DNA of 64,000 nucleotides from a virus (IMGVR_UViG_3300036985_003045), one strand, 5' to 3'; shown: positions 2,750 through 36,675, numbered from the stretch's first letter. The notes: generated by a model from the sequence alone, not told the origin. Program-made: numbers and translations.

Positions 2750-3715
2750 TTACAATCCTTTTAATGCTGAGTTATCAGGCAAGAACTTTCCAGTCAAACC
2801 TAATTTTGCTTTACGTTTCTTCCATTCTGCATGAAGGTCATCTGGAATATCGGCTCTAGTACTATCAAGTATCTTCAAGTAAATATCAACCATACTAGAA
2901 TAATCTTTTGGTTTGAGTTTGGTCTTCAATAATTTATGTAACTTGTAATAATCTTCAGCATCTGCTCTTGTAATCTTAATACCTAACTTCTTACCCAATA
3001 CTGATAAAGCATCTTCTGGATTATGAGCAATAATAACTCCAGTATCTTTATCCTTGACACCAGTTACATGGTTAAATGAATAATTTGCTACTTGGAATGC
3101 AGACAACATCAACTGAGTTCTATGTAATCCTTTTACATTAGAATTAGCAGGATATGCAGCTGAATGATAAGAAAAAGTCAACCATTGTAGATCACCAATC
3201 ATCCAATCTATTTGAACTCCAATACCAACTTCATATCCTTTATCATTAATTTGTGGAAACAATCCAAAGATGTTACCATTTGTAACTTTCTTTTCGTCAC
3301 AATATAATGATGGAGCATGTGAATTGATATATAATGTTAGTTCTTTAAGAAATGCTTTCATTAATAACATTTCAGGCGAAGCAGACTTTGCTCTCTTTTC
3401 TAACTTTGCAAATTCAATATGAACTGCCTTAGGATCAATATTCCAATCAGACATAGACTTATCTGACATAGTATGATCAAGCAAACTCTTTGAATCAATA
3501 CCCAAGTCTATATCCCCTGACATAGGCTTTTTACCTACTGAACCTAGCGGTTTGAAATGATTTAGATTAAATATTGCGGCTTTCTTTGGAAAGATATGTT
3601 TAAGTTCTTTGAAATATGCTTCAAGTGTAGGAGCAATATGTTCTAGTTTAATAGAGGCAGTTTTATCTTTAAATACATTGCCGCCTTCTGTTAAAAATTC
3701 TGTGAATGATTTCAT
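2750..3715 (-). CDS. Pol-beta-superfamily nucleotidyltransferase with capsid-targeting-like N-terminus
   Basis: MKSFTEFLTEGGNVF start; LGSVGKKPMSGDIDL and VQID motifs. Confidence 0.7.
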   Translation of the reverse strand: MKSFTEFLTEGGNVFKDKTASIKLEHIAPTLEAYFKELKHIFPKKAAIFNLNHFKPLGSVGKKPMSGDIDLGIDSKSLLDHTMSDKSMSDWNIDPKAVHIEFAKLEKRAKSASPEMLLMKAFLKELTLYINSHAPSLYCDEKKVTNGNIFGLFPQINDKGYEVGIGVQIDWMIGDLQWLTFSYHSAAYPANSNVKGLHRTQLMLSAFQVANYSFNHVTGVKDKDTGVIIAHNPEDALSVLGKKLGIKITRADAEDYYKLHKLLKTKLKPKDYSSMVDIYLKILDSTRADIPDDLHAEWKKRKAKLGLTGKFLPDNSALKGL

Positions 3716-3724
3716 CTATTGTCC

Positions 3725-4771
3725 TTAAGATTTTTTAATACGAGTTTTAATCATCTTCATACCAATTCTATTTCCTACTGGGTTTGGAGCACTAGAAGGT
3801 GAATGAAACTTAAATGTAGCATCTGAAAAAGTACGAACAGCATAAGTAAGATTACTAGATTTATAATCAAGATTAATTTGATTAACAGTTAAGGTTCTTG
3901 CAGCTAATGTTAAAACTTCTATTGCTCCATTTGCAGGATTATTTAACCATTTCATAACTTCACTAGTTATAGGAAAATGTATCATACCCCATTTTTTATA
4001 TCTTGCACTCGCGGTACCACCAAAAACAGATTTCATTTTAGCTTCACTACCTATAGCAAATGAAGCAGCTTTAAATAATTCTTTACATTGAATAACACAA
4101 GAATCATAACTACCCATAGCATTTACCGCATTAATAAGTACATCTTGATCTGGTATATTAATACCTCTATAGCCAGTTTTTAAATCTGTTCTTTTTATTA
4201 ATTTAATTAATTGGTTATAACCAGGCAAATCTAAATATTTTGCTACTTCTAAAACTCCACCATAAACAGTACCCTTATTAATTAATTTTAATACAGTCAA
4301 TGCTTTCTTATTTATAGTACTAAGAGATTCGGGATTTATATTATTTAATGCTCCTTCAACTGCTGTAATAGCTGGAGCTCCACCTTCACCTGATTTTGCA
4401 GAAAACTTTTCATCAATGCCATCTCTAACAAGATAGTAATCTACAAGTCGCATATTTTCATCTTTAGGAAATTTAGCATGTGTATAGTTTTGTCCTGAAT
4501 TTAACATATACAATGCACCACATACTTCTCCAAAATCAGATGTTATTATTCCAATATCTTGAGTAGTTAATCCATCAAATTTACCTGGAAAACTATTAGA
4601 ACCTATAATAGATTGTTTAACTATATAATTACAAGCCTCTTTAGCAGCAGGTGTAATATTTAAAGTCTTTATATACTTAGTAACAATAGTTTCTATTTCA
4701 ACAGATGTAAAAGGATTCATAGTATTTAATGAAAACTTTGATGGTGTTAAGGATTTTTTTATAAGTGCCAT
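3725..4771 (-). CDS. Putative PD-(D/E)xK-like endonuclease
   Basis: DFGEV...FPKDENMRLVDY...FSAKS pattern resembles restriction-endonuclease-like folds. Confidence 0.45.
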   Translation of the reverse strand: MALIKKSLTPSKFSLNTMNPFTSVEIETIVTKYIKTLNITPAAKEACNYIVKQSIIGSNSFPGKFDGLTTQDIGIITSDFGEVCGALYMLNSGQNYTHAKFPKDENMRLVDYYLVRDGIDEKFSAKSGEGGAPAITAVEGALNNINPESLSTINKKALTVLKLINKGTVYGGVLEVAKYLDLPGYNQLIKLIKRTDLKTGYRGINIPDQDVLINAVNAMGSYDSCVIQCKELFKAASFAIGSEAKMKSVFGGTASARYKKWGMIHFPITSEVMKWLNNPANGAIEVLTLAARTLTVNQINLDYKSSNLTYAVRTFSDATFKFHSPSSAPNPVGNRIGMKMIKTRIKKS

Positions 4772-4802: not shown

Positions 4803-4810
4803 TATTTATT
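4803..4810 (-). promoter_or_regulatory. Possible late promoter variant (AATAAATA)
   Basis: One mismatch to the T4 late consensus TATAAATA, just upstream of 3725..4771. Confidence 0.35.
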
Positions 4811-5846
4811 AAAAGAAATCCTCGAGTGTAGATTCTTTTTGTTTAATACCTTTATTCCAATAATCAAACCTATGATTTACTGGTGCAAGATGTACAGACT
4901 TTGGTTTTTCCATACATGTTTGCATGAAATCAATTGGACTATATGTATAGAATTGTTCAGGCCATTTAAAAACTGACCAGTTATTTCTGTTGCACATTTC
5001 TATTAATGCATCGGTAAAATATTGTCTTATGCTATCTCTTTCTTGTCTAGAACCAAAGAATGGAGTACCTTTATACCAACCTGTTTTAGGCAATTTACGT
5101 GTCTCATCTTCTATAGGTAAAGGTAACACAACTTCAATATTCTTAATGTTTAATACCTTTATTTGATTCTCATATTCAGATACTAAATCATCTACATATT
5201 GGGTTGGGTTTTCTTCTCGACAGATATGATGTCTAATATCAATATTGCCATAATAACATGTAAGATGAGTAAGGTTTTCTTTTAATCCTGGCATGAAATC
5301 ATCTATTTCTTTCGTAATAGTTTTTCTTAATACACCTGCTAGAGTTCTACCATCTTTACGAAATGTCATATATCCAGGTTGATATGCAGAAAATGAATGA
5401 CTATCACCTAATACTAATTTAGTTGTAACCACAGGATGCAACATTTCAGGTATAGAGTTACAAACATTTGATAATGCATCCCAATCTATGGCAGACCAAT
5501 ATTCATCTGCATTCTTAAGTCGATTCTTACATAGTCTACCATAATCAGGCATAGGAATATCAAGAGATACTAATGACTTATTCTTATGTGTTAGGATTCG
5601 TTCGAAGAAGACAGCATTTTCTTTAGTTGCTCCTCCAAAGAGATTAAGAGTTTCTCCATCTTGTTCCATAGAATGATATAAAAATATAGTATCATAATCA
5701 TCCCATGACTCTCCATGGAGAACATCGATCTCAATATTCAAGGCATCTTCAAGTTGGCATTTTCTGAGCATAGCCCAACCAAATTTATGAGAATATTGAG
5801 ATGATGTTAATTTACCAGGTAATAAATCTAAAGCATATTTTTTCAT
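4809..5846 (-). CDS. Putative DNA-modifying transferase (BGT-like N-domain plus SGNH-like GDSH domain)
   Basis: DYDTIF...LNLFGG...SLDIPMPDY recalls the T4 beta-glucosyltransferase N-lobe. LVLGDSH and GNID..H motifs; C-terminal STLEDFF. Confidence 0.5.
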   Translation of the reverse strand: MKKYALDLLPGKLTSSQYSHKFGWAMLRKCQLEDALNIEIDVLHGESWDDYDTIFLYHSMEQDGETLNLFGGATKENAVFFERILTHKNKSLVSLDIPMPDYGRLCKNRLKNADEYWSAIDWDALSNVCNSIPEMLHPVVTTKLVLGDSHSFSAYQPGYMTFRKDGRTLAGVLRKTITKEIDDFMPGLKENLTHLTCYYGNIDIRHHICREENPTQYVDDLVSEYENQIKVLNIKNIEVVLPLPIEDETRKLPKTGWYKGTPFFGSRQERDSIRQYFTDALIEMCNRNNWSVFKWPEQFYTYSPIDFMQTCMEKPKSVHLAPVNHRFDYWNKGIKQKESTLEDFF

Positions 5847-7012
5847 TAAAAGAAGGAGTCCAAGGTTGCAGTATTTTGTTTATTATATACTAATTGCTCC
5901 GCTTTGTACAACTCTTTTTCAATATCAATAGTTCCTATTCTTGCTACTTTGCGGCGTTCAATAGCTTTTGTATCATTGCGAATCTTGCAAAAGATCCCAT
6001 ACTGGCACATGCCGACCTCCGAACCGTACGTCATCATCTCAGTCTGGTCTTTGCTTAGAATCTTATTATTGTTATGATCAAGTACATTATGGAAATGTTC
6101 ATGGATCTTAATATCACCGAACCCAAAGAACTTCTGATTATGCCTGAACCATACAACTAAATCTCCATTTGTTATTTCCTTTGATGATGCCTTTGGGAAT
6201 AGTAACTTAAGAGTGTATTGCGCTCCAGGACCGGGTTTAACAAAGTTCTCATCATTATCCCATGATAGTTTTGGATTCACTGAATTAGAAGTAGTACAAT
6301 GGTATCCATAATAAGATCCAATACCTTCAATCTCAGTTAATATTTTAAAAGTATTAGAAGCAGCACCTGATTGTTGCATTCTATTAAAGAATCCTTGTTC
6401 TCCTAATCCTGCTACCCAATCCATGATATTACCTGGATGTACTTTATCTGCATTAGGTCCAAATCTTTGTAACTGATACTTGTTCGCTGCACCAAATAAA
6501 GAAGTACGTAACTCAGTTGAACCATAAATTGGTAACTTAATTGATGCTGCTAACTCTAGATTCTTCCGTACCCGGGCACGCTCACCTGTGGTAAAATAGT
6601 TCTCAAAATCAACATGTGCAGTTTGTGGATCATTATTTCTAGTAGCAATCTGATGGATACCTCTAGCTCCATAAAAATGCGAGATGATTGTATTACCAAT
6701 CTTATTATGAACCGAGAGTTTATCATCAGGTAATGATACTATATTCTTCATAATGTATACCATACGATCATCACAGGTAATCATTGGATGGAAGTACTCA
6801 GTATCTGGATTTAATGCATACTCTGTATATTCATACTTTTCTGTTAATCCATATTGCCATTCAGTTCTTTTATTAACCTGTTCAACAAAATATTTAAAAT
6901 CAAGAAACTTCTCAACATCACATAAAGAAAAATACTTTACTAAAGGATAATCAACATTATTAGATACAAAGTTATTAGCTTCTATATACTCTTTACCTAC
7001 AGCATCTATCAT
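5846..7012 (-). CDS. aGPT-Pplase / 5-hmdU-DNA-kinase-helical-domain-like DNA base hypermodification enzyme
   Basis: DDR..YI..NI, GIGSYYGYH, PGPGA and EVGMCQY motifs; C-terminal ATLDSFF. Confidence 0.6.
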   Translation of the reverse strand: MIDAVGKEYIEANNFVSNNVDYPLVKYFSLCDVEKFLDFKYFVEQVNKRTEWQYGLTEKYEYTEYALNPDTEYFHPMITCDDRMVYIMKNIVSLPDDKLSVHNKIGNTIISHFYGARGIHQIATRNNDPQTAHVDFENYFTTGERARVRKNLELAASIKLPIYGSTELRTSLFGAANKYQLQRFGPNADKVHPGNIMDWVAGLGEQGFFNRMQQSGAASNTFKILTEIEGIGSYYGYHCTTSNSVNPKLSWDNDENFVKPGPGAQYTLKLLFPKASSKEITNGDLVVWFRHNQKFFGFGDIKIHEHFHNVLDHNNNKILSKDQTEMMTYGSEVGMCQYGIFCKIRNDTKAIERRKVARIGTIDIEKELYKAEQLVYNKQNTATLDSFF

Positions 7013-7404
7013 TTAGATTCCCATTCAGTATGGCGAACATTTTCCTTTTCAGTTAAATCATGTTGCATGTACACAATATTAATATGTGGAACTATTTTTT
7101 TAATCATTTCTATTTGTATTGGATCATCTTCAAAATGAATGCCTATTTTATATCCTTGCTCTTCTAATTTAATAATAGTATTTCCCTTATGAATACCGGA
7201 AGACTCTCTACTCTTATTATCAAAAGACAATTCATTAAACATTACTTTGTTATGAATACCTTTTTTGGTAAGCATGCCAAGAGTTTCTTCTGATTCTTCA
7301 AAAGATCTACCGGTTATAATAATATCGTTAAGACCGGGGTAAACACCTCCATATTTACCCATGTATATGACACCATCTATATCAAAAGTATTAATATTAT
7401 TCAT
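7009..7404 (-). CDS. HAD-superfamily phosphatase
   Basis: FDIDGV, ITGRS and FEDD motifs. Confidence 0.85.
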   Translation of the reverse strand: MNNINTFDIDGVIYMGKYGGVYPGLNDIIITGRSFEESEETLGMLTKKGIHNKVMFNELSFDNKSRESSGIHKGNTIIKLEEQGYKIGIHFEDDPIQIEMIKKIVPHINIVYMQHDLTEKENVRHTEWESK

Positions 7405-8674
7405 AATCTGTTTGACCTGCTTGGAAAGTATACGGTAAATCCTTTGCTATAGGTTTATTTTCTATTAATTGAGGTTTAGTTAACTCAGTCAATATTCGTC
7501 TTGCTAAGGCGTCACACTCAAACTTTGCATCTTCTGTTTTCAATTGCAAAGGCGGAGTTTTTTGAGTCCATGCTGAAGGACCTCTTAAGAATCCAACGAT
7601 ACCCATTTCAGAAGCAACTTTACAAAATCTAATTGCCGATATAACTACACCACCAGAGTTTGGACTATCTTGTACAGATAATCTAGCAGTTAATTCATAT
7701 CGAGCTCCGCCAAAACCATAACCAATAATATCAATATTACATACTTTATTATCAGAACCTACATAAGTACCACCTGGTTTTTGTTGAACAGTTAATGAAG
7801 GACCTGCATATAATGTCATACCTGAATATGGTTCATCACGTACAATATTCTGACCTTTCAAAACATTCTCTTTTGAGATATGTTTATTATGTAATCTTTC
7901 TTGCTTTGCCATATTCAAGAAGTCAGTATTAGCAGTTCTTCCTGTACGGATATGCTCTTGACCTTGTGTAGAACCGCAGGCCATATTTAATTGAATATGT
8001 TGAGTTACTAATATACCTGAATCTATCATAGCACCTTGAAGAACTTCAGATAATCTAGAAGCACCCCAAGCAGATCTCATATCAGAACCAACAATTGTTA
8101 GACCTTTATCGATAAACTTCTGCTCAATAATCTGAGTTTCTTTAGTGGCAATAATAGTTGGGATACAATTAACAAAATGTACACCTGCTTCTAATGCTAC
8201 ATCAAGATAAAATCTAGTAGCCTTTTCTGAACCTACTGGAAGATAGTTAATAAGTACATCTACACCAGTTTTCTTAACAATCGATACGATATCATCGTAT
8301 GATTTTGCCGCTTCTGCACCAGTCCTAAATGAAACATTCTCTGGATAATCAAGCATATGCTCAGCAACACCATCAAGTTCAGGACCTGAAAATACTGTTG
8401 CATCTTTTGGAACACATGTATTATCTATTTCAGATACATGATCCATTGCGCAATTTGGTAAAGCTCTTAAAGCTTCAATTAAGGATTTATTTACTTTACG
8501 ACGATCGACATCAAATCCTACTACGAATTCCATATCTTCTGATGTATATCCTCCAATATCTGGATACATGAGTCCAACTTTATCGTGTGGATTTTGAATA
8601 TAGTATTGAACTCCTTCAACTAACGACTTAGCGCAATTACCTACGCCGATGATACCAACTTTAATTTTTGACAT
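7397..8674 (-). CDS. ino1: myo-inositol-1-phosphate synthase (actinobacterial/archaeal type)
   Basis: GIIGVGNCA Rossmann motif; NYLPVGSE, NTDFLNM, DSPNSGGVV and KTPP motifs. Confidence 0.92.
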   Translation of the reverse strand: MSKIKVGIIGVGNCAKSLVEGVQYYIQNPHDKVGLMYPDIGGYTSEDMEFVVGFDVDRRKVNKSLIEALRALPNCAMDHVSEIDNTCVPKDATVFSGPELDGVAEHMLDYPENVSFRTGAEAAKSYDDIVSIVKKTGVDVLINYLPVGSEKATRFYLDVALEAGVHFVNCIPTIIATKETQIIEQKFIDKGLTIVGSDMRSAWGASRLSEVLQGAMIDSGILVTQHIQLNMACGSTQGQEHIRTGRTANTDFLNMAKQERLHNKHISKENVLKGQNIVRDEPYSGMTLYAGPSLTVQQKPGGTYVGSDNKVCNIDIIGYGFGGARYELTARLSVQDSPNSGGVVISAIRFCKVASEMGIVGFLRGPSAWTQKTPPLQLKTEDAKFECDALARRILTELTKPQLIENKPIAKDLPYTFQAGQTDYE

Positions 8675-8749
8675 TTTTATTTTCCTTACATTTCAGTTTT
8701 AAGACAATTGGTCCCACTTTGGGGAGTAGGTCTATCTAGTTATAACAAT

Positions 8750-9208
8750 TTAATGCATTAATAAATTATATTGTACTCCGGCTTCTTTGAACATATTTTC
8801 AGTGTCAACCCAAGAATCCTGCCAGTTATCTGGAACTTTCTTATCTCCAGTCCACATAACTACTCTTTTTACTCCAACTTGAATAATACCCTTTGCGCAT
8901 TCAGAACAAACTGGTAATCCATACACATATAATGTAGATCCATTTAGTGATACTCCATTAAATGTGGCATTATATATTAGATTCATTTCTGAATGTACAA
9001 CTAATTTATACTTGGTTGGTTTATGCTCATATCTTTCTACTGCATCTAGGATTCCACGTGGGAATCCATTATATCCAGTAGAAATAATATTCTTTTTGAT
9101 AGGATCTACTGCTATAGAACCTACTTTAGTTGATGGATCTTTACTCCAATTAGAAACGTTTTTAGCCATTTCTAAGAACCGTATATCCCATTTAGTAATA
9201 TCAGACAT
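8750..9208 (-). CDS. cd: dCMP deaminase
   Basis: HSEMN and PVCSECAK zinc motifs; SKDPSTKVG. Confidence 0.92.
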   Translation of the reverse strand: MSDITKWDIRFLEMAKNVSNWSKDPSTKVGSIAVDPIKKNIISTGYNGFPRGILDAVERYEHKPTKYKLVVHSEMNLIYNATFNGVSLNGSTLYVYGLPVCSECAKGIIQVGVKRVVMWTGDKKVPDNWQDSWVDTENMFKEAGVQYNLLMH

Positions 9209-9237
9209 CTTTTATATAAGTTAGTTATAATAGATCT

Positions 9238-9266
9238 ATTATATCATAGTTTCTAGAAATGTAAAC
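9238..9266 (-). promoter_or_regulatory. Early (sigma70-type) promoter GTTTAC-N17-TATAAT
   Basis: Matches the T4 early consensus. Placed to drive dCMP deaminase, ino1, HAD and the two transferases. Confidence 0.8.
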
Positions 9267-9268
9267 AT

Positions 9269-9916
9269 TTATTTTATTAAGTGAAAATGTTTTTCATATA
9301 CATGCAAACTAGTGCAGTTCCACATAATAGTACCTACTTCTACATCAAGATCCTTAGCAAGTTTTTTCAAAACATATTCTTGCCAATAGTAATCATTCTT
9401 ATATCCAAACACGACATCATTTGATCTCATTTGTACATTAGCATGGAGTTTACCATCTCTAATCATATAACCTACAGCATTAGTGCAGATGAAATCAGAC
9501 ATACCATGTTTATTATAATCAGTCCAAATAGAAGGTCTATTATAAACCATAGTAGCACGTCTAGAGAAAGGATTCTGTTTCAATTCATTTAATACATTTT
9601 TATATTGGTAACCATTCTCTTCAGAGAAGATTAAGTATCCATAGTTACTATTAATACATCCACCTCCACCAGAAATTGCTAACCAGATAGCTGGAGTTTC
9701 ACCGGGTATATCATGTACATTTAAAGATTGAGATTCATACCATTCAACTTCGCGTTTAGCATAATCAGTATTTAATGTACCAAAAATTACAGGTTCATCT
9801 GCATTAAAAGATGCACCCATAATCTCAAGCATTTTACAACCAGTTTTATCGATTACAAAATCAGCATGCATTAATTTATATAAGAACTCTTTTCTTATAT
9901 CTTTAACATTAAGCAT
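9269..9916 (-). CDS. gp42: dCMP hydroxymethylase (T4 gp42-like)
   Basis: Close resemblance to T4 gp42 (DKTG, DIPGETP.IW, SDFICTN, MRSNDVVFGYKND). The terminal Asp corresponds to the dCMP-specifying D179. Confidence 0.9.
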   Translation of the reverse strand: MLNVKDIRKEFLYKLMHADFVIDKTGCKMLEIMGASFNADEPVIFGTLNTDYAKREVEWYESQSLNVHDIPGETPAIWLAISGGGGCINSNYGYLIFSEENGYQYKNVLNELKQNPFSRRATMVYNRPSIWTDYNKHGMSDFICTNAVGYMIRDGKLHANVQMRSNDVVFGYKNDYYWQEYVLKKLAKDLDVEVGTIMWNCTSLHVYEKHFHLIK

Positions 9917-10352
9917 TTTTAGAACCTCTTTTTACTGGAATTTCTTCTGCTTTTCCATTAAAATCAACAATAATTACCGGTTCAACTCTAAATGTAGTGG
10001 GAATTAATGGCGAAGTTGAATCATTAGGTTTATTAAAGATATCGCGATCTGGTCTTTGACCTGGGACTTGGCCACGCATATACGCAGCAAGAAATGATGT
10101 ATAGTTAATAAGATCTAATGCAGAATCTTCGACTGATTCATAATTGACTTTACCACCTGCTTCCATAGTTTCAAGTACTGATACCATTCTTAGATACTTG
10201 CCATTAATAGTATCAAGAATAGACCACACACCATGAACATAATAGTCTGCTTGTTGAACTCTAGAAACTGTGTTATTATAATCCTGGCCTTTTTTCTCCT
10301 GAATTTCTGCAGCTTCTAATAAAATATTTGCTGAAGGTCTTGTGTATGTCAT
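9909..10352 (-). CDS. Nucleotide-modification-associated domain 1 (DUF1599-like all-alpha NTP-PPase-like protein)
   Basis: EKKGQDYN...K.LR...ESVEDSALDLINY pattern. Confidence 0.7.
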   Translation of the reverse strand: MTYTRPSANILLEAAEIQEKKGQDYNNTVSRVQQADYYVHGVWSILDTINGKYLRMVSVLETMEAGGKVNYESVEDSALDLINYTSFLAAYMRGQVPGQRPDRDIFNKPNDSTSPLIPTTFRVEPVIIVDFNGKAEEIPVKRGSKNA

Positions 10353-10835: not shown

Positions 10836-10864
10836 ATTATAACATAAATCCAGGTAATGTAAAC
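10836..10864 (-). promoter_or_regulatory. Early promoter GTTTAC-N17-TATAAT
   Basis: Consensus match. Confidence 0.8.
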
Positions 10865-11834: not shown

Positions 11835-12236
11835 TTAATCAAACACCTGTGCAAACAATCCAACATTGTCAACATGGGTAGGGGCAGTCCAACCTTCAGG
11901 TTTTAGTAAATCCGGAAGTCCCCATGGATTAGGTCGACCTTCTTTAATACCAACTTGTTTTGCTAAATTAGCATCTAATACTCTATTCCATGCAGTATAT
12001 GCATCTACTTCATATGAATCTAAAGTACCAATAGCAAATACAACTAAATCTATTAGAGCATCAACTGCATCATCGGCTGTTTTAGCTTCTTTTAACTCAT
12101 CCAATTCTTCTTGTAAACAACCTATACGGAATGACAAAAACTTAAGAAGTTTGTCATTATCAAAGTTTCTAACAACTTCATTAACACCAAAACCTTCATG
12201 CATATTTGCAATATCATTTACCCAATTATTACTCAT
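11835..12236 (-). CDS. MazG/PRA-PH-family NTP pyrophosphohydrolase (candidate dCTPase/dUTPase)
   Basis: EELDE...DALIDLVVFAIG, ANLAK and DLLKPEGW motifs. Confidence 0.8.
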   Translation of the reverse strand: MSNNWVNDIANMHEGFGVNEVVRNFDNDKLLKFLSFRIGCLQEELDELKEAKTADDAVDALIDLVVFAIGTLDSYEVDAYTAWNRVLDANLAKQVGIKEGRPNPWGLPDLLKPEGWTAPTHVDNVGLFAQVFD

Positions 12237-15106: not shown

Positions 15107-15664
15107 TTATGGATTATTTTTAGAATGCGGTACATCGAATACAAAGGTAATTCTTATACAATCACCTAAGTTTTCTGTTCCATGTTCTAACTTATTATTA
15201 AACCAAAGTAATGTTCCAGGTTCTACAATAACAGACTCATCTCCTACTGAATATCGATAAGTTCCTTGAATTGATAAATGATACCTATCTCTTGTAAGAT
15301 AATAATCTCCAATATCAATATGTTTGCCTACAATACCTCCAATAGGTAAAGATAGAAATCCACATCGACTATGGGATTTAAAATGTCGTTTCAAAAATCC
15401 TACAATTTCAGTATGTCTTTTATATGCAGGAGTCTCTATACAGATATCTGTATCGCCAACATATTGATCAAGGTTTTCTACTCCGCCCATTACTAATTGA
15501 AGTACTCCTGCTTGAATTTCTGGAAAACCTCTATCAAGCATAGACATTGATCCTTCTAACGTCTTTTGAGCACCCCAATCATTTGGGTATTTTTCTAATT
15601 GTTTTAATATCTTTGAGACATTAATTCCAGTTTTGATTATTCTAATATTATCCAAAGAAGTCAT
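15107..15664 (-). CDS. Aspartyl/asparaginyl beta-hydroxylase-like 2OG-Fe(II) oxygenase
   Basis: HxD (KHIDIG), RYHLSI and distal H (NKLEHG). Confidence 0.75.
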   Translation of the reverse strand: MTSLDNIRIIKTGINVSKILKQLEKYPNDWGAQKTLEGSMSMLDRGFPEIQAGVLQLVMGGVENLDQYVGDTDICIETPAYKRHTEIVGFLKRHFKSHSRCGFLSLPIGGIVGKHIDIGDYYLTRDRYHLSIQGTYRYSVGDESVIVEPGTLLWFNNKLEHGTENLGDCIRITFVFDVPHSKNNP

Positions 15665-18152
15665 CCAAGTTTGCCGAGTTATTTAATTTCCAACCAATAG
15701 GTTCAAGCATAATTTGCAAAGGGTTTATAAATACTTTTTCAAATTGTGTATCATAATCAATATATTTTTCTAATCCAAATTCTTCCGGTATTTTATCTTT
15801 GATGGATATTACATTTTGATTAATGGGATTTGGAGTTCTCAAGAATACTACTTTAACTTTATCACTATCAAGTATTTTTTCATACGTCTTTGATAGTTTA
15901 TATTTGTCTATTAAATGATTATACCAAAGAGCTCCGCGTACATGCATGGGAGTACCTTTAGCAAATACATTAGTCTTATCACTAAACTTCTTAAGACCAT
16001 TAATACCTGAAGGTCGACCGATACTTGCTGAGGCAAGAGATTCAAATTCAATTTTAAAGTCATTGACATACTTATTGATTTGATCTTGATCACCATCCAA
16101 TATAATATTCAATGAGTCTTTTAGTTTTTTCCTACATACCTGAGGTGTAGAAGACTTAACTAGTTCTAAACCGGTTACTTTTAGTTTAGGTTCTGCATAT
16201 TGAACACCTTCAGAATTATACACTCGAAGAAAGTATCTTTTCTTGGCTACAAATACACCTACATCGGCTAGTACTTCACGCTTCATTTTCATTTTCTGTT
16301 CATAGGCATTCATATAGTCTGCCATTTTTATATATGAACGATCAATTAATGGTTCAACTATTTTAGCACAAAATGTATCCATGAATGCTATCTTTTGATC
16401 GACAGATTTATCTTTACATACAGATTCTACAACTGCTTCTAAAGTTACATAATTAGAATCTGTATCACCGGCAATAACATATTGGATATCTTCAGTTTTA
16501 TTTGCTTTATTAAAGTACTCATCCAACATAATAGCATTCCATCTATTGGATAACTGACCTGATAGCGTAATACTTTCTGCCATTCTTAAGTCATAATACC
16601 TGAACCATGAATTACCTATTGCGCCATACACACTGTTCAATGCTTCTTTTACTGCTAATTGCATAGCATTAGAGGAACTTTGAGCATTCTGATATTCTTT
16701 ATTGTACTTATCAGATTCAAGTAACTGCTCATACTTAAGCATTTCATTTTTATAATTACTACGGTCGGCATATACCTCTTCCATAATTTCAGGTAGGAAG
16801 CCACGAACATCTCGACGATAACACCAACCATTTGCAGTTAGAGATAAATTCTGCTCTTTAATATAGAAATTATCAAATGACTTTGATAATAGTTCATCTA
16901 CAGTACAAGGGATTCTAGTATCAGTAAGAGTCTCAGGACTAATATTGTATTGCATAATCAAATGTGGATATAGAGATGCCAAATCGAATGATGCAATGTA
17001 CTTATGCTTACCTACTACTGGAACTTGAACATATGCACCTTCATACTTACCAGTTTTGATTGAATTCTTCTTTGGTGGTATAACAATGTTCTTATTCTTT
17101 AATCGATTATAAATGATTGAGTCCCACATATTTACTGGTCCATACACTTCATCTAGATTGATTTTAGAATAATATGCAAGTGATACCGCAATCTGAATCA
17201 GTTTAAGTTTTTCATCTAACTTATCGACAAGTCTAACGTCATGTCTATTATAGTCTACAAATAAAGACCAATCTTTTGTATAAAAGTCTTTGAATGAATT
17301 ATAAGGATTTTCAAGTTTCTTTTCACCAAGAACTGTATTGGCAACAGTATCAAGTTTCATATCATCTACTTGAATTTTACCAAACTTAGCAAATAGTTCT
17401 TTATAATCGAGCATGGCAATGCCCTCGATATTATAACCTATCTTTTCATTACCATTCTGATCTTTATACAATCGTTCACGAACGCGACCCCAAGGAGATA
17501 GTTTATTAATGATTTGATCATCTATAACTCTTGACATTCTACGAATTAGATATGGAAAATCATATCCATTTGTATTCCAACCAGTTACAATATCAGGATA
17601 GTTTAGAGTCCAATGAGTCATGAACTCACGTAATAAATGTGCTTCACTTTGGCATTTAATATATGGACCATCATCATTTACCTTGTCATAAGGTCTTGTA
17701 CCAAAGGTTACGATATCAGTCGAATTTCTATTCTTTACTGATATAAGTGTGATCTCTTCTATAGGATCTTTAATCACCTCATCAATACTTAGACCATGTT
17801 CAGTAGTAGTCTCAATATCAATAGTTGTGATATTCATTACTGATTGGTCATATTCTATTTCACCTGGATAATATTCAGATATGAATTGCTTTGTGAAGTC
17901 TTGCATCCCATATATTTTGAAGTTCTCTACTTCACCATAACTTTTGATAAACTCTTTAGTGTCATGGATACTACCAGGTTGGATTTCACCTACATATTCA
18001 TTAGTAAGAGTCTTCCATTTGGTTGGAGTCTTGGATGAGACAAATAAGGTAGGTTTGAAGTCAACCTTGGTATGGATTCGTTTGCCATCTTCATAACCTC
18101 GAAGTAAGATGTTATTAGATACTTGTAGTACACTTGTATAGAATTTAGACAT
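15648..18152 (-). CDS. gp43: Family B DNA polymerase
   Basis: DIET exonuclease motif, FDLASLYPH, K.ALNSVYG, GDTDS; C-terminal NLDDFFG clamp motif. Confidence 0.97.
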   Translation of the reverse strand: MSKFYTSVLQVSNNILLRGYEDGKRIHTKVDFKPTLFVSSKTPTKWKTLTNEYVGEIQPGSIHDTKEFIKSYGEVENFKIYGMQDFTKQFISEYYPGEIEYDQSVMNITTIDIETTTEHGLSIDEVIKDPIEEITLISVKNRNSTDIVTFGTRPYDKVNDDGPYIKCQSEAHLLREFMTHWTLNYPDIVTGWNTNGYDFPYLIRRMSRVIDDQIINKLSPWGRVRERLYKDQNGNEKIGYNIEGIAMLDYKELFAKFGKIQVDDMKLDTVANTVLGEKKLENPYNSFKDFYTKDWSLFVDYNRHDVRLVDKLDEKLKLIQIAVSLAYYSKINLDEVYGPVNMWDSIIYNRLKNKNIVIPPKKNSIKTGKYEGAYVQVPVVGKHKYIASFDLASLYPHLIMQYNISPETLTDTRIPCTVDELLSKSFDNFYIKEQNLSLTANGWCYRRDVRGFLPEIMEEVYADRSNYKNEMLKYEQLLESDKYNKEYQNAQSSSNAMQLAVKEALNSVYGAIGNSWFRYYDLRMAESITLSGQLSNRWNAIMLDEYFNKANKTEDIQYVIAGDTDSNYVTLEAVVESVCKDKSVDQKIAFMDTFCAKIVEPLIDRSYIKMADYMNAYEQKMKMKREVLADVGVFVAKKRYFLRVYNSEGVQYAEPKLKVTGLELVKSSTPQVCRKKLKDSLNIILDGDQDQINKYVNDFKIEFESLASASIGRPSGINGLKKFSDKTNVFAKGTPMHVRGALWYNHLIDKYKLSKTYEKILDSDKVKVVFLRTPNPINQNVISIKDKIPEEFGLEKYIDYDTQFEKVFINPLQIMLEPIGWKLNNSANLDDFFG

Positions 18153-27561: not shown

Positions 27562-29646
27562 CTACTTGCTTGTTGCGACAAATGTACCTTTCCAGTTCTT
27601 AGGGAAAGATGGATCACTCATATATCCATGAATTCTTTTACGCATCATATCATAATAGTAATCTAATTCACCATTGAATGAACCTTTCAAATCCATACAA
27701 TGTGTAATGGCGTATGCCCATTCTTGTTTGCAATAATGTTTGAACATTTTCTTATGAATCGTTCTAGCGTTTGCAAATTCTAATCTATTATATCTGTCTG
27801 GTTGTAATACTGTATAGATATCCAATCCAATTGTCTTACCTTTTACTGCAATGTTGTCTAACTTAATAACGAAATAATCATCTTTAACAAGTTTAGCAGT
27901 TTCTGGTCCAATGATTAATAATACACCATAAGACTTAGTTTGTCCTTCTAATCTAGCAGCAGTAGATACTGAGTCGCCTAATACATCATATCCAAATCTA
28001 GATTTAGAACCAATGTTACCTATAAGAGTTTGACCAGTATTAACACCAGCACCCATACCAATAATTGGTTTACCTTGTGCTACTAGAGTTTCATTGAATC
28101 CATCAACAGAAGCAATCATTTCTAAGGCTGTTTTAACAGCATTCTTTGCATGATTGATATCATCTAAAGGTGCACCGTGAACGTGAAGACTAGCATCTCC
28201 AATAAACTTGATAAGACAACCATCATTCTTTAATACTGGTTCTGATATAGCAGTCATATAATCATTCATAATAGAAGTTAATCCTTCTACATCATCACCA
28301 TAAGATTCACCTAGAGTGGTAAAACCTCTGAGGTCGGTCATAACAATAGATAATTCTTTACGTTCACCACCAAGTTTAATCAGTTCTGGATTCTTTTGTA
28401 ATCTTTCAACCATTACTGGAGAAACATAAGAACCAAATTGTTTTTTAATTTGGAGTTTCTGACCTAATTCAGTTAAGAATTTGACCGTATAAGTGTGACC
28501 ATAAACTGCGACAATTGCGAATACAGGTACTGTAATATCGAAAAGATAATATAGGTTGGTATATAGATAATTAGAAATAGGATAAAGAGAGATAATGATG
28601 CTACAAAATATAAGAATTCCATATTTCCACCGTGCTATTAAAATTGATATGATACTTAATACCAATACAGTAAGTAACTCTGCACCAGTGCTCCAATCGG
28701 GTCTTGATATATTTATACCTTTAGTAAGTGTGTCTAAAATTGCTGCTTGAACATGATGTGGAAAGACTGATCCAGCAGAAGTTGCAACGGGGTTATTGAG
28801 CCCTCTTCCAGTGAGTCCAACAATGACGATTGCTCCACTAAAGGACTCTGGGAGTTTGCTTGATGAATATTCACTAATGGTATTTGGTTTAATCCAAATG
28901 CGACCGAGGGAGTCTGTATTGATTCTTCCGAACTTTGGTATTCTGACTGCTTCGATTGATCCATTGTTGACTTTGACTTGAAATGATGGATCTCCTGATG
29001 CCACACGCAAGGTTTCGAGACTGATACTCGGATACAATAATCCTTTGGAACTGACCACCATTGGGATTCGTCTGGTAACGCCATCAATTTCTGGGAGTGT
29101 ATTAACAACCCCAATACCATTAGCATTATCATTGAAGACTTGTATATTCGGAAGTATGTTTCCATATTTAACTCCTACATCACCAGTACCAATAACAGAA
29201 ACTCCTGGTCTAAATGGTTTATAAGTTTCAGTAAAAGGTTCATTAGTACCAGTTTGAGGTAATACAACTGGGTATTCCTGAAGAACTTGTGTTAAGGCAT
29301 CATCTTGCCTAAATCTATCTGCCTCAGGCATAAACAGATTAAAAACAACAAGACCTGCGCCTCGAATATACAACTCCTTAATAAGATTAGCATATTCGTT
29401 TCGAGGGAATGGGAATTGACCTTTTTCTTTAAGGGATGCGTCATCTATATTTACTATTTTTATATCTGATTGTTGAATATCTTGTGTAAGTAAAGTATCA
29501 AAATACCTCAACCTTACTGATTCTACAAAAGATGGGTCAACTACTCTTAACCCTATAATTAAACCTAATGTTACTAACGATAACCATGGAGACAAGAGTA
29601 GTTTTTTCATATTATTGGTGTACTGGTATTGAAATGATTGGGTCAT
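27562..29646 (-). CDS. CHASE2-domain class III adenylate/guanylate cyclase
   Basis: CHASE2 (IVNIDDASLKEKGQFPFPR; DGVTRRIP), three TMs, TDLRGFT, IKFIGDA, GDSVSTAARLE. Confidence 0.9.
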   Translation of the reverse strand: MTQSFQYQYTNNMKKLLLSPWLSLVTLGLIIGLRVVDPSFVESVRLRYFDTLLTQDIQQSDIKIVNIDDASLKEKGQFPFPRNEYANLIKELYIRGAGLVVFNLFMPEADRFRQDDALTQVLQEYPVVLPQTGTNEPFTETYKPFRPGVSVIGTGDVGVKYGNILPNIQVFNDNANGIGVVNTLPEIDGVTRRIPMVVSSKGLLYPSISLETLRVASGDPSFQVKVNNGSIEAVRIPKFGRINTDSLGRIWIKPNTISEYSSSKLPESFSGAIVIVGLTGRGLNNPVATSAGSVFPHHVQAAILDTLTKGINISRPDWSTGAELLTVLVLSIISILIARWKYGILIFCSIIISLYPISNYLYTNLYYLFDITVPVFAIVAVYGHTYTVKFLTELGQKLQIKKQFGSYVSPVMVERLQKNPELIKLGGERKELSIVMTDLRGFTTLGESYGDDVEGLTSIMNDYMTAISEPVLKNDGCLIKFIGDASLHVHGAPLDDINHAKNAVKTALEMIASVDGFNETLVAQGKPIIGMGAGVNTGQTLIGNIGSKSRFGYDVLGDSVSTAARLEGQTKSYGVLLIIGPETAKLVKDDYFVIKLDNIAVKGKTIGLDIYTVLQPDRYNRLEFANARTIHKKMFKHYCKQEWAYAITHCMDLKGSFNGELDYYYDMMRKRIHGYMSDPSFPKNWKGTFVATSK

Positions 29647-36021: not shown

Positions 36022-36675
36022 TTAGAACGTACTATCAGCCTCAATTGCACAATAATAAACTAAATCACCAATTGTAGATTCAAATCTAGCTATTCTAGAA
36101 TGAATAGTTACTGTATAATTACCTTGTAGCATTTTTAGGTTTTCAATTTTAATATTAGCTTTAAAAGTTTTATCAGTAGTACCTACAATTGATTCATATA
36201 AATTGCTAGTAGCATTCTTTTTATCGCCGATAGTTAAAGTTAAACTAGTTCCATCGCCTACAATAGAAAGATCAGAAGCTTTTAAAACTCCTGCGGTTTT
36301 TTGAATAGCAGCAAATAATGATTCAGATAAGTCAAAATTAATATCTGCGGCAGGAAATACTATATCTTTACTTGGAGTTTTCAATAAAGATGCTTCGGCC
36401 GCAAAAAATTTAATTCTGTTATTTTTCTCTTGAATATTAACATACTTTTCTTCAAATTCTAATTCAGGATCAGTGAATAAAGAAATTGCTCCTAAAAATG
36501 AATTAAGGTCATATATACCAAATTCAATTGGAAATTGTTCTGCTACGGTTATACTGGAGGCCACAGTTTTGTTTACCGAAGTAGTCTTTAATCTATTACC
36601 AGGACTTAATAATAGATTGCTATTGATTGCCGCATAGTTTTTAAGGATATTAATTGTTTCTTTACTGATTTTCAT
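36022..36675 (-). CDS. gp45: Sliding clamp
   Basis: LKNYAAINSNL, FGIYDLNSFL, YCAIEADS. Confidence 0.93.
   Translation of the reverse strand: MKISKETINILKNYAAINSNLLLSPGNRLKTTSVNKTVASSITVAEQFPIEFGIYDLNSFLGAISLFTDPELEFEEKYVNIQEKNNRIKFFAAEASLLKTPSKDIVFPAADINFDLSESLFAAIQKTAGVLKASDLSIVGDGTSLTLTIGDKKNATSNLYESIVGTTDKTFKANIKIENLKMLQGNYTVTIHSRIARFESTIGDLVYYCAIEADSTF

Follow-up and report, generated by a model that had tools for sequence, protein, structure and literature searches.

Why would a phage encode an inositol phosphate synthase among the genes of its DNA metabolism? The question is raised by IMGVR_UViG_3300036985_003045, a 64,000-nt stretch of DNA with a G+C content of about 32% that comes from an uncultured T4-like phage of fresh water (the window; all coordinates refer to its full length). 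On its minus strand the genes run in the order gp43 polymerase, cupin, UvsX, gp41 helicase, gp61-like primase and MazG-like nucleoside triphosphate (NTP) pyrophosphatase, followed by two small unknown proteins, a thymidylate-synthase homologue, a deoxycytidine monophosphate (dCMP) deaminase, the synthase Ino1, a HAD phosphatase and two proteins that we call p4 and p3. The last four genes overlap, by 8 nt (Ino1/HAD), 4 nt (HAD/p4) and 1 nt (p4/p3), in keeping with the minus-strand cluster of overlapping or abutting genes described in a first-pass annotation (Table 1). That annotation had proposed that the phage makes inositol, or inositol phosphate, and couples it to 5-hydroxymethylcytosine (hmC). 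The proposal is supported by the linkage of Ino1 and HAD to p3 and p4, by a hydroxymethylase partner and by the occurrence of the Ino1-HAD pair in two other DNA-base pathways, and we consider it reasonably probable that inositol, as the Ino1-derived cyclitol (most likely myo-inositol), is ether-linked to hmC in the DNA of this phage. By homology, gp42 and Ino1 provide the predicted routes to hmC and to inositol.

The thymidylate-synthase homologue is about 60% identical to the T4 dCMP hydroxymethylase gp42. Its motifs SDFICTN and RSNDVVFGYKNDY place Asp143, Cys146, Asp169 and Asp177 at the corresponding ThyA positions. An acidic residue at ThyA L143 lets water in, and Asp at N177 specifies dCMP (PMC13326640); both were found in the window enzyme, in its SDF and NDY motifs. 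The nucleophilic Cys and the Asp for dCMP specificity, both named in the first-pass annotation, are indeed present. Some gp42-like enzymes, those of RB69 and DLP3, are 5-hydroxylases, which are diagnosed by Asn at ThyA 169 (PMC13326640, 2026). We considered a 5-hydroxy-dCMP synthase of the RB69 gp48 type and rejected it, since Asp169 is retained (RSND). By these residue criteria (PMC13326640), the product carries the T4 hydroxymethylase signature and is of the hydroxymethylase type, not a 5-hydroxylase. The neighbouring dCMP deaminase was confirmed by its family matches, and the MazG-like pyrophosphatase, a candidate for the deoxycytidine triphosphatase role of T4 gp56, is also found close to gp42 in other module-bearing contigs.

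The identification of the next gene as a myo-inositol-1-phosphate synthase holds at the family level, as shown by its match to the Mycobacterium tuberculosis enzyme, and its equivalog cut-off is not reached. Phage homologues share without variation its motifs for NAD binding and catalysis (NYLPVGS, GSD..S..GAS, N.DF.NM, RL..K.ISKENV, DNK and DSPNS); an alignment of six of them showed NYLPVGS, N.DF.NM, K..SK, DNK and DSPNS to be invariant. Inositol is the likely product of the predicted enzyme. The adjoining small protein, correctly recognised as a HAD phosphatase, is of the capless type. It possesses all four motifs of the superfamily, and their residues D8, D10, T31, K73, E92, D93 and D94 were conserved in at least 90% of 61 distinct homologues. 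The Pfam match was weak (0.0013, under the cut-off), and phrog_415 likens the protein to the phosphatase of T4 polynucleotide kinase.

The protein p4 matched PF18723 (HMUDK_hel) with an E value of 2.6e-11 and 43.9 bits, against a gathering cut-off of 25, and this family was assigned to all 120 p4 homologues listed. Its AlphaFold 2 (AF2) model is all-helical, with a predicted local distance difference test score (pLDDT) of 91.6. Among 48,161 chains the top structural match of the model was 8z2m, the PaMx11 5-PmdU glycinyltransferase (Z 9.1, root-mean-square deviation 4.1 over 223 aa), followed by queuine-salvage DUF2419 proteins and helix-hairpin-helix (HhH) DNA glycosylases (OGG, EndoIII and AlkA), which scored nearly as high. 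Foldseek returned nothing at E ≤0.001, a profile search of the PDB gave no match, and PF18724, the family of the amino-acid:DNA transferases (AADTs), did not match even at E 10. The active site of 8z2m is formed by Glu243 and Cys247, and the cysteine attacks C6 of the base (PMC11472151). The same spacing separates Glu332 and Cys336 of p4, which lie in a motif, E332-x3-C336-Q-Y (EVGLCQY), that is invariant across the homologues; the AADT proteins that adjoin Ino1 elsewhere have the sequence E-[ST]-x-x-C-Q-Y. By analogy, we take p4 to work like an AADT, and we have not filed it in the AADT family because the whole-profile match is not significant. The earlier description of an aGPT-Pplase/hmdU-kinase-like enzyme (hmdU, 5-hydroxymethyldeoxyuridine) thus keeps its PF18723 match and its Glu-x3-Cys motif, but PF18724 is unmatched and the P-loop kinase domain is absent. 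No P-loop kinase family matched p4 or any of the 16 open reading frames (ORFs) between 360 and 13680, no kinase was found elsewhere in the window, and the type-B kinase family appeared in just 3 of 84 p4 loci.

The second protein, p3, was modelled by AF2 as two domains. Residues 139-336 match GDSL esterases (Z 12.7, 7e16), and the N-terminal domain (1-135) is alpha/beta. The Pfam match for SGNH/GDSL was not significant (0.13). Invariant residues include S19, H20, G147-D148-S149-H150, G200, I202, D203, R205, H206, H207, E313 and H319; SGNH block I (GDSH, 147-150) and block V (H319) are thereby invariant, and block III is atypical (GNID). The first-pass annotation had called p3 a BGT-like/GDSH protein. 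The GDSH element stands, but the C-terminal domain has the SGNH/GDSL fold, not that of the GT-B glycosyltransferases. As a candidate BGT-like or GT-B enzyme p3 was rejected, no glycosyltransferase being found among its matches in PDB, AFDB, Atlas or Pfam (domain 1-135 was not searched alone). The related statement that the window holds no canonical glucosyltransferase was put to a partial test: about 46 window ORFs were compared with Pfam and none matched one. SGNH enzymes usually act on carboxyl esters.

The C-termini of p3 and p4 offer a further indication of their substrate. A tail of the T4 sliding-clamp-binding type, L-[DE]-x-F-F, occurs in 3 of the 123 window ORFs of at least 60 aa, namely p3 (TLEDFF), p4 (TLDSFF) and gp43 (NLDDFFG). 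Since only these two proteins and the DNA polymerase bear such a tail, p3 and p4 are probably DNA-directed. Such tails recur across both families, the proteins of the Aeromonas phages among them, whereas neither Ino1 nor HAD has one. In the predicted complex of p4 with gp45, the last 8 residues of p4 contact the interdomain loop and the C-terminus of the clamp. In another type of gene cluster, which combines Tet/JBP with AADT, the Tet/JBP oxygenase was found to have a clamp tail in 12 of 23 cases. Judging from such tails, it may be a general feature of T4-like phages that their DNA-modifying enzymes are tethered to the clamp.

We then examined how the four genes are distributed. When IMG/VR was searched with the p4 profile, 210 relatives were found, and 80 of the loci were examined; with the window and metagenome contigs, this made 85 p4 loci. 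Ino1 was present in 81 of these, HAD in 80 and p3 in 78, always adjacent, with the misses located at contig ends, and HAD follows Ino1 in 80 of the 85. The genes occur in at least three orders: the window has Ino1-HAD-p4-p3, most loci have p3-Ino1-HAD-p4, and L008 and L120 have others. All five records of at least 100 kb contain a divergent thymidylate-synthase homologue of the dCMP-hydroxymethylase type. Every such homologue in or near the module carries Asp143, Cys146, Asp169 and Asp177, whereas canonical thymidylate synthase copies in the same records read PCH...PFN. Smaller fragments often have no thymidylate-synthase homologue (7 of 22), which is uninformative. As to the co-occurrence of ino1 with gp42, Ino1-HAD was found tied to p3/p4 in about 80 viral contigs, with a partner that is always of the dCMP-hydroxymethylase type. 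ThyX was considered as the partner enzyme, for it adjoins p3 in L006; it was discarded, as none of the five large records has ThyX and the related G004 has a gp42-type gene elsewhere. In 42 of 84 p4 loci (for instance L008, 6800-7531, and L143, 9616-10299) an FkbM-type methyltransferase (PF05050) is encoded between HAD and p4, and some metagenomic proteins (P0169, P0178) combine it with p4 in one chain. The window has none. From its position, this gene suggests an O-methylated cyclitol in the phages that carry it.

The Ino1-HAD pair is not confined to this setting. Ino1 was found in at least 437 viral contigs, and contexts were classed for the 80 nearest to the protein of the cultured Caulobacter phage Cr30. 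HAD follows Ino1 in 69 of these 80 loci, and 76 of them show adjacency to DNA-modification genes. The p3/p4 context accounts for 38 loci. Another 29, including Cr30, combine a Tet_JBP dioxygenase, AADT (PF18724), Ino1, HAD and a P-loop kinase (PF18751); 9 are 7-deazaguanine clusters with FolE/QueD/QueE/QueC, like that of Stenotrophomonas phage Moby; 2 are truncated and 2 have no such neighbour. The p4 loci contain neither AADT nor Tet, and the p3/p4 and Tet/AADT/kinase architectures are mutually exclusive. The Cr30 cluster (L114, KF301602.1, about 46-63 kb), like the 28 loci that share its architecture, looks like a complete hydroxymethyl-pyrimidine pathway in which Ino1 and HAD are the sole donor-making genes; its genes are annotated solely as hypothetical proteins. 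The 7-deazaguanine architecture, with FolE, QueD, QueE, QueC and a DpdA-like protein, was seen in L002 (Moby), L117, L129, L130, L141, L150, L162, L180, L186 and L189, and L141 additionally has a weak GT1-like protein. Ralstonia phage RP13 (L001, LC554890.1, 85-100 kb) carries a PF18723 protein (161 bits), Ino1, HAD, an Acb1-like anti-CBASS protein and 5-hmdU DNA kinase 2 within 10 kb, an architecture with which L108 was also noted. Elsewhere in RP13 a thymidylate-synthase homologue is acidic at ThyA 143 and has an apparent Asn at 177, a one-residue insertion making the placement uncertain; from these residues it is likely to be a dUMP hydroxymethylase. Homologues of p3 or p4 were not found around Ino1 in RP13, Moby or Cr30, either by profile search within 7 kb on each side or by tblastn of the whole collection, and Pfam shows other transferases near Ino1 in these three phages. 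Taken together, the contexts lead us to put forward, tentatively and as one possibility, a portable cyclitol-supply cassette (Ino1 plus capless HAD) that would serve three base pathways, that is gp42/hmC with p3-p4, Tet-JBP and 5-hydroxymethyluracil (hmU) with kinase-AADT, and 7-deazaguanine with DpdA, and would give a class of inositol-bearing bases; in the hmC version the SGNH enzyme would replace the DNA kinase and both enzymes would be clamp-tethered.

A plausible sequence of events for the window, in which the steps to hmC and to inositol rest on homology and the later ones are inferred, would be as follows. The gp42-type enzyme would make hydroxymethyl-dCMP, with the MazG-like pyrophosphatase and the deaminase adjusting the nucleotide pools, and hmC would enter DNA during replication. 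Ino1 would cyclise glucose-6-phosphate to inositol phosphate, from which HAD would release free inositol. Riding the gp45 clamp behind the fork, p3 and p4 would then meet the new base. In this scheme p4 would flip out hmC and its Cys336 would attack C6, as Cys247 does in PaMx11, to yield an exocyclic 5-methylene, to which an inositol hydroxyl would add; the product would be the ether 5-(inosityl-oxymethyl)cytosine, which is isobaric with glucosyl-hmC. O-linked transfer to such a 5-methylene has a precedent in the serine transfer of ViI (PMC8989533). We assign p3 to the slot of the 5-hmdU DNA kinase because of its position and because Aeromonas phages 31/44RR have it fused to p4; there it would probably improve the leaving group (for example as an ester) or deliver the cyclitol. 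The FkbM-type methyltransferase, present in about half of the related phages, would O-methylate the cyclitol there. Between the two linkages first proposed, an ether or a phosphodiester, the ether is more likely. One of the supposed transferases has turned out to be an SGNH-fold enzyme, and no kinase is present.

Several observations weigh against the attachment of inositol to hmC by this route. The module contains no kinase or other recognised activating enzyme, and the chemistry assigned to p3, whose fold is typically that of an esterase, is the weakest link of the mechanism. For p4, the Z score of 9.1 with 8z2m is below the level that the tool deems safe for helical proteins, the hhalign match between its profile and that of AADT (probability 0.8, E 0.066) falls short of significance though the catalytic motifs align, and the predicted p4-gp45 complex (0.58, against 0.00 for the best control) cleared its threshold but was rated as weak support. 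Ino1 scores 216 bits with TIGR03450, under the equivalog cut-off of 638; it has inserts, including one of 15 residues at the active-site loop, and also matches the relative 6k96, a synthase of a five-membered cyclitol phosphate. Aeromonas phages 31/44RR have gp42 and a p3-p4 fusion (an 807-aa ORF, given as 795 aa in the record annotation), without Ino1 and without a glucosyltransferase (PMC2993671), so that p3 and p4 can work without phage-made inositol. In Aeromonas phage 25 (L005; phage 31 is L004) p3 occurs alone, adjoining two unique proteins of about 355 aa. From their gene content, the hmC of these Aeromonas Straboviridae is probably further modified. Finally, all module genes lie in a plastic early region near the polymerase, and the early regions of T4-like phages are mosaics (PMC2993671), so some of the adjacency could be inherited rather than functional.

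In a rival reading, p3 and p4 would attach a different group or a host metabolite to hmC, and Ino1-HAD would be a separate auxiliary metabolic pair that, for example, serves as a drain on glucose-6-phosphate or makes a solute or cofactor and happens to lie in the same plastic early region. The fused p3-p4 of gp42-bearing Aeromonas phages without Ino1, the three unrelated contexts of Ino1-HAD, the 2 of 80 loci without any of them and the mosaic early regions would all fit such a pair. However, the genes are neighbours in 81 of 85 loci and in 76 of 80, and Ino1-HAD is interleaved among DNA enzymes (p3-Ino1-HAD-p4; AADT-Ino1-HAD-kinase; DpdA-like-Ino1-HAD-QueC) in varied lineages and orders. Clusters of the Cr30 type have no other donor-making or tailoring gene, and the methyltransferase sits between HAD and p4 or is even fused to p4. 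We therefore think a separate pair unlikely. It is quite improbable that the cyclitol is attached in another manner, as inositol phosphate through a phosphodiester (hmC-O-P-inositol), with HAD acting on DNA after transfer, or that it is a cyclitol other than inositol, the product of a divergent Ino1. The resemblance of the capless HAD to the phosphatase of T4 polynucleotide kinase, which works on DNA (phrog_415), the sub-equivalog score, active-site-loop insert and cyclitol-synthase match of Ino1, and the many invariant Arg and His residues of p3, which might bind phosphate, speak for it. But HAD is without the clamp tail that p3 and p4 have, the conserved core is without a nucleotidyltransferase that could activate inositol phosphate, and the kinase and AADT chemistry of the Cr30-type clusters displaces phosphate and does not keep it (PMC8989533, PMC11472151).

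One may also ask whether p3 and p4 decorate bases at all: p4 might be a glycosylase-like HhH protein of repair or anti-defence, matching OGG, EndoIII, AlkA and DUF2419 almost as well as the transferase, and p3, with its esterase-typical SGNH fold, might have a small molecule or the cell envelope as its target. This is highly improbable, given that Glu and Cys are conserved in the transferase motif, that co-occurrence with dCMP hydroxymethylase and Ino1-HAD is strict, that PF18723 is tied to hydroxymethyl-pyrimidine pathways and that p3 also carries the clamp tail. An inositol ether on hmC remains our preferred reading, and no report of an inositol-modified DNA base was found in the full-text literature, in a search that was incomplete in coverage.

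Compared with known systems, the proposed pathway most resembles the thymidine hypermodification of PaMx11, M6 and ViI (5-hmdU DNA kinase plus AADT, formerly aGPT-Pplase2), in which the 5-hydroxymethyl group is substituted after replication. p4 shares with 8z2m the Glu-x3-Cys motif and, as far as the model suggests, the two-helix-bundle glycosylase-like fold, and ViI uses the hydroxyl of serine as an oxygen nucleophile. The window differs in its base, which would be hmC made by a gp42-type enzyme and not hmU, in having an SGNH protein and no P-loop kinase, in a p4 that belongs to PF18723 and not PF18724, in a donor that would be a phage-made cyclitol and not an amino acid, and in the absence from the module of tailoring enzymes dependent on pyridoxal phosphate, radical SAM or flavin. 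With the glucosylation of hmC by T4 (gp42, gp56, gp1 and alpha-/beta-glucosyltransferase) it shares the pre-replicative route to hmC, through the gp42 homologue, the deaminase and the MazG-type pyrophosphatase, and the subsequent decoration of the hydroxymethyl group would be common to both. Unlike T4, it would use neither a GT-B enzyme nor host UDP-glucose but its own donor, and a plain ether to a carbocyclic polyol is predicted in place of a glycosidic bond. In RB69 and DLP3, T4-like phages that make arabinosyl-5-hydroxycytosine, a thymidylate-synthase homologue also lies beside a donor-synthesis cassette; their Asn169 enzymes, however, make 5-hydroxy-dCMP, and their donor is a nucleoside diphosphate arabinose used by GT-B transferases (PMC13326640), whereas the window enzyme keeps Asp169. 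The same pair or proteins are found in Cr30 (Tet_JBP-AADT-Ino1-HAD-kinase), RP13 (PF18723, Ino1-HAD, HMUD2 kinase), Moby/Mendera (FolE-Ino1-HAD-QueC-DpdA-QueE) and Aeromonas 31/44RR, with identities of 41-59% for Ino1 and 37-57% for HAD, but there the base chemistry differs (hmU or 7-deazaguanine) or Ino1 is missing. No published DNA chemistry for these phages was found in the literature searched. Within hydroxymethyl-pyrimidine hypermodification, the donor, the enzyme pair and the base target of the window pathway would all be new.

If the proposed pathway is correct, it would place the first carbocyclic polyol on a DNA base. Since the ether-linked inositol would be isobaric with glucosyl-hmC, routine mass spectrometry could confuse the two, and the modified DNA would probably resist glycosidases as well as restriction enzymes that read glucosyl-hmC. 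The module is common, with at least 437 Ino1-encoding viral contigs and with lake and sediment samples from many studies among its sources, so that it may be present in a considerable proportion of the T4-like phages of aquatic habitats. The scheme also points to an AADT-like enzyme on cytosine, to kinase-free activation of a hydroxymethyl group and to clamp-tethered modifiers, which would be of interest for DNA labelling, and the cultured phages Cr30, RP13, Moby/Mendera and Aeromonas 31/44RR make the hypothesis directly testable.

Table 1. Positions of the module, its proposed partners and nearby features in the window.
Feature	Position	Strand	Basis
p3, two-domain protein, SGNH/GDSL-fold C-terminal domain, 345 aa	4809..5846	-	AF2 pLDDT 92.3
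p3 tail STLEDFF, sliding-clamp-binding type	4812..4832	-	motif, also in Aeromonas phage homologues
p4, predicted HhH-glycosylase-fold enzyme, PF18723 / amino-acid:DNA-transferase superfamily, 388 aa	5846..7012	-	PF18723, fold, motif
p4 tail ATLDSFF, sliding-clamp-binding type	5849..5869	-	motif, recurs through family
Capless HAD phosphatase, 131 aa	7009..7404	-	DxDGV, TGR, K, EDD motifs
Ino1, myo-inositol-phosphate synthase family, 425 aa	7397..8674	-	PDB 1gr0 (M. tuberculosis Ino1) 4.4e-55
dCMP deaminase	8750..9208	-	PF00383 6.6e-18; phrog_174 8.7e-44
Promoter-like site, sigma-70 type	9238..9265	-	TTTACA, 16 nt, TATAAT with TG; 11/12; consensus match only
gp42-type dCMP hydroxymethylase, 215 aa	9269..9916	-	PDB 1b49/T4 gp42 E 3e-79, residues 3-214
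147-aa protein encoded upstream of gp42 (first-pass label Nmad1)	9909..10352	-	phrog_1485, phrog_18404
MazG-like NTP pyrophosphatase, candidate dCTPase (gp56 role)	11835..12236	-	PF01503 1.7e-5; phrog_671 9.6e-18
gp43 DNA polymerase, tail NLDDFFG	15648..18152	-	Pfam DNA_pol_B
gp45 sliding clamp, proposed p3/p4 docking partner	36022..36675	-	phrog_223 3.1e-65

The first-pass annotation had also given Ino1, HAD and both supposed transferases a shared early promoter at 9238-9266. A consensus-type site is present there, read from 9265 to 9238, which is the best promoter-like site of the region and lies directly upstream of the deaminase-Ino1-HAD-p4-p3 run; as a class, however, such sites are not enriched, 42 being found against 38 expected from shuffles. 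A second site of the same build (TTTACA, 16 nt, TG-TATAAT; 11/12) was noted at 10836-10863 on the minus strand, upstream of a 148-aa ORF. The label Nmad1, given earlier to the protein next to gp42 (9909-10352), could not be confirmed: it had no Pfam match even at E 10 and matched only phrog_1485 and phrog_18404. In phrog_18404 its domain comes after a MazG-like domain, and the protein adjoins gp42 in closer relatives only.

Downstream of p3, the ORFs at 3725-4771, 2750-3715 and 1618-2748 gave no Pfam, PHROG or NCBIfam match and are kept in close relatives only; because of this, we do not count them as part of the module core. The first of them (minus strand, 348 aa, directly downstream of p3) was linked weakly by an Atlas feature search to families of type II restriction endonucleases. 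The other two (minus strand) show a nucleotidyltransferase signature of the Pol-beta type (G-S, with GDIDL about 10 residues further on) and have Atlas leads to NTP_transf_2. The product of 2750-3715 begins MKSFTEFLTE, which resembles the T4 capsid-targeting sequence, and a similar peptide is found at residues 292-302 of the 1618-2748 product. Further away, 27562-29646 (minus strand) encodes a fusion of a CHASE2 sensor (PF05226 2.5e-37) with a class III nucleotide cyclase (PF00211 5.4e-17).

Megablast of the cluster against GenBank phages gave no match, and the closest record, G001, is a fragment of 21 kb that does not contain the module. Near-identical DNA was found in lake-water and sediment metagenomes from about 12 studies, and also in metatranscriptome contigs, which are possibly derived from DNA. 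The phage lineage is therefore widespread and possibly transcribed in situ. In one freshwater-sediment metatranscriptome run, 71% of the sampled words from the module (4809-8674) were present in contigs.

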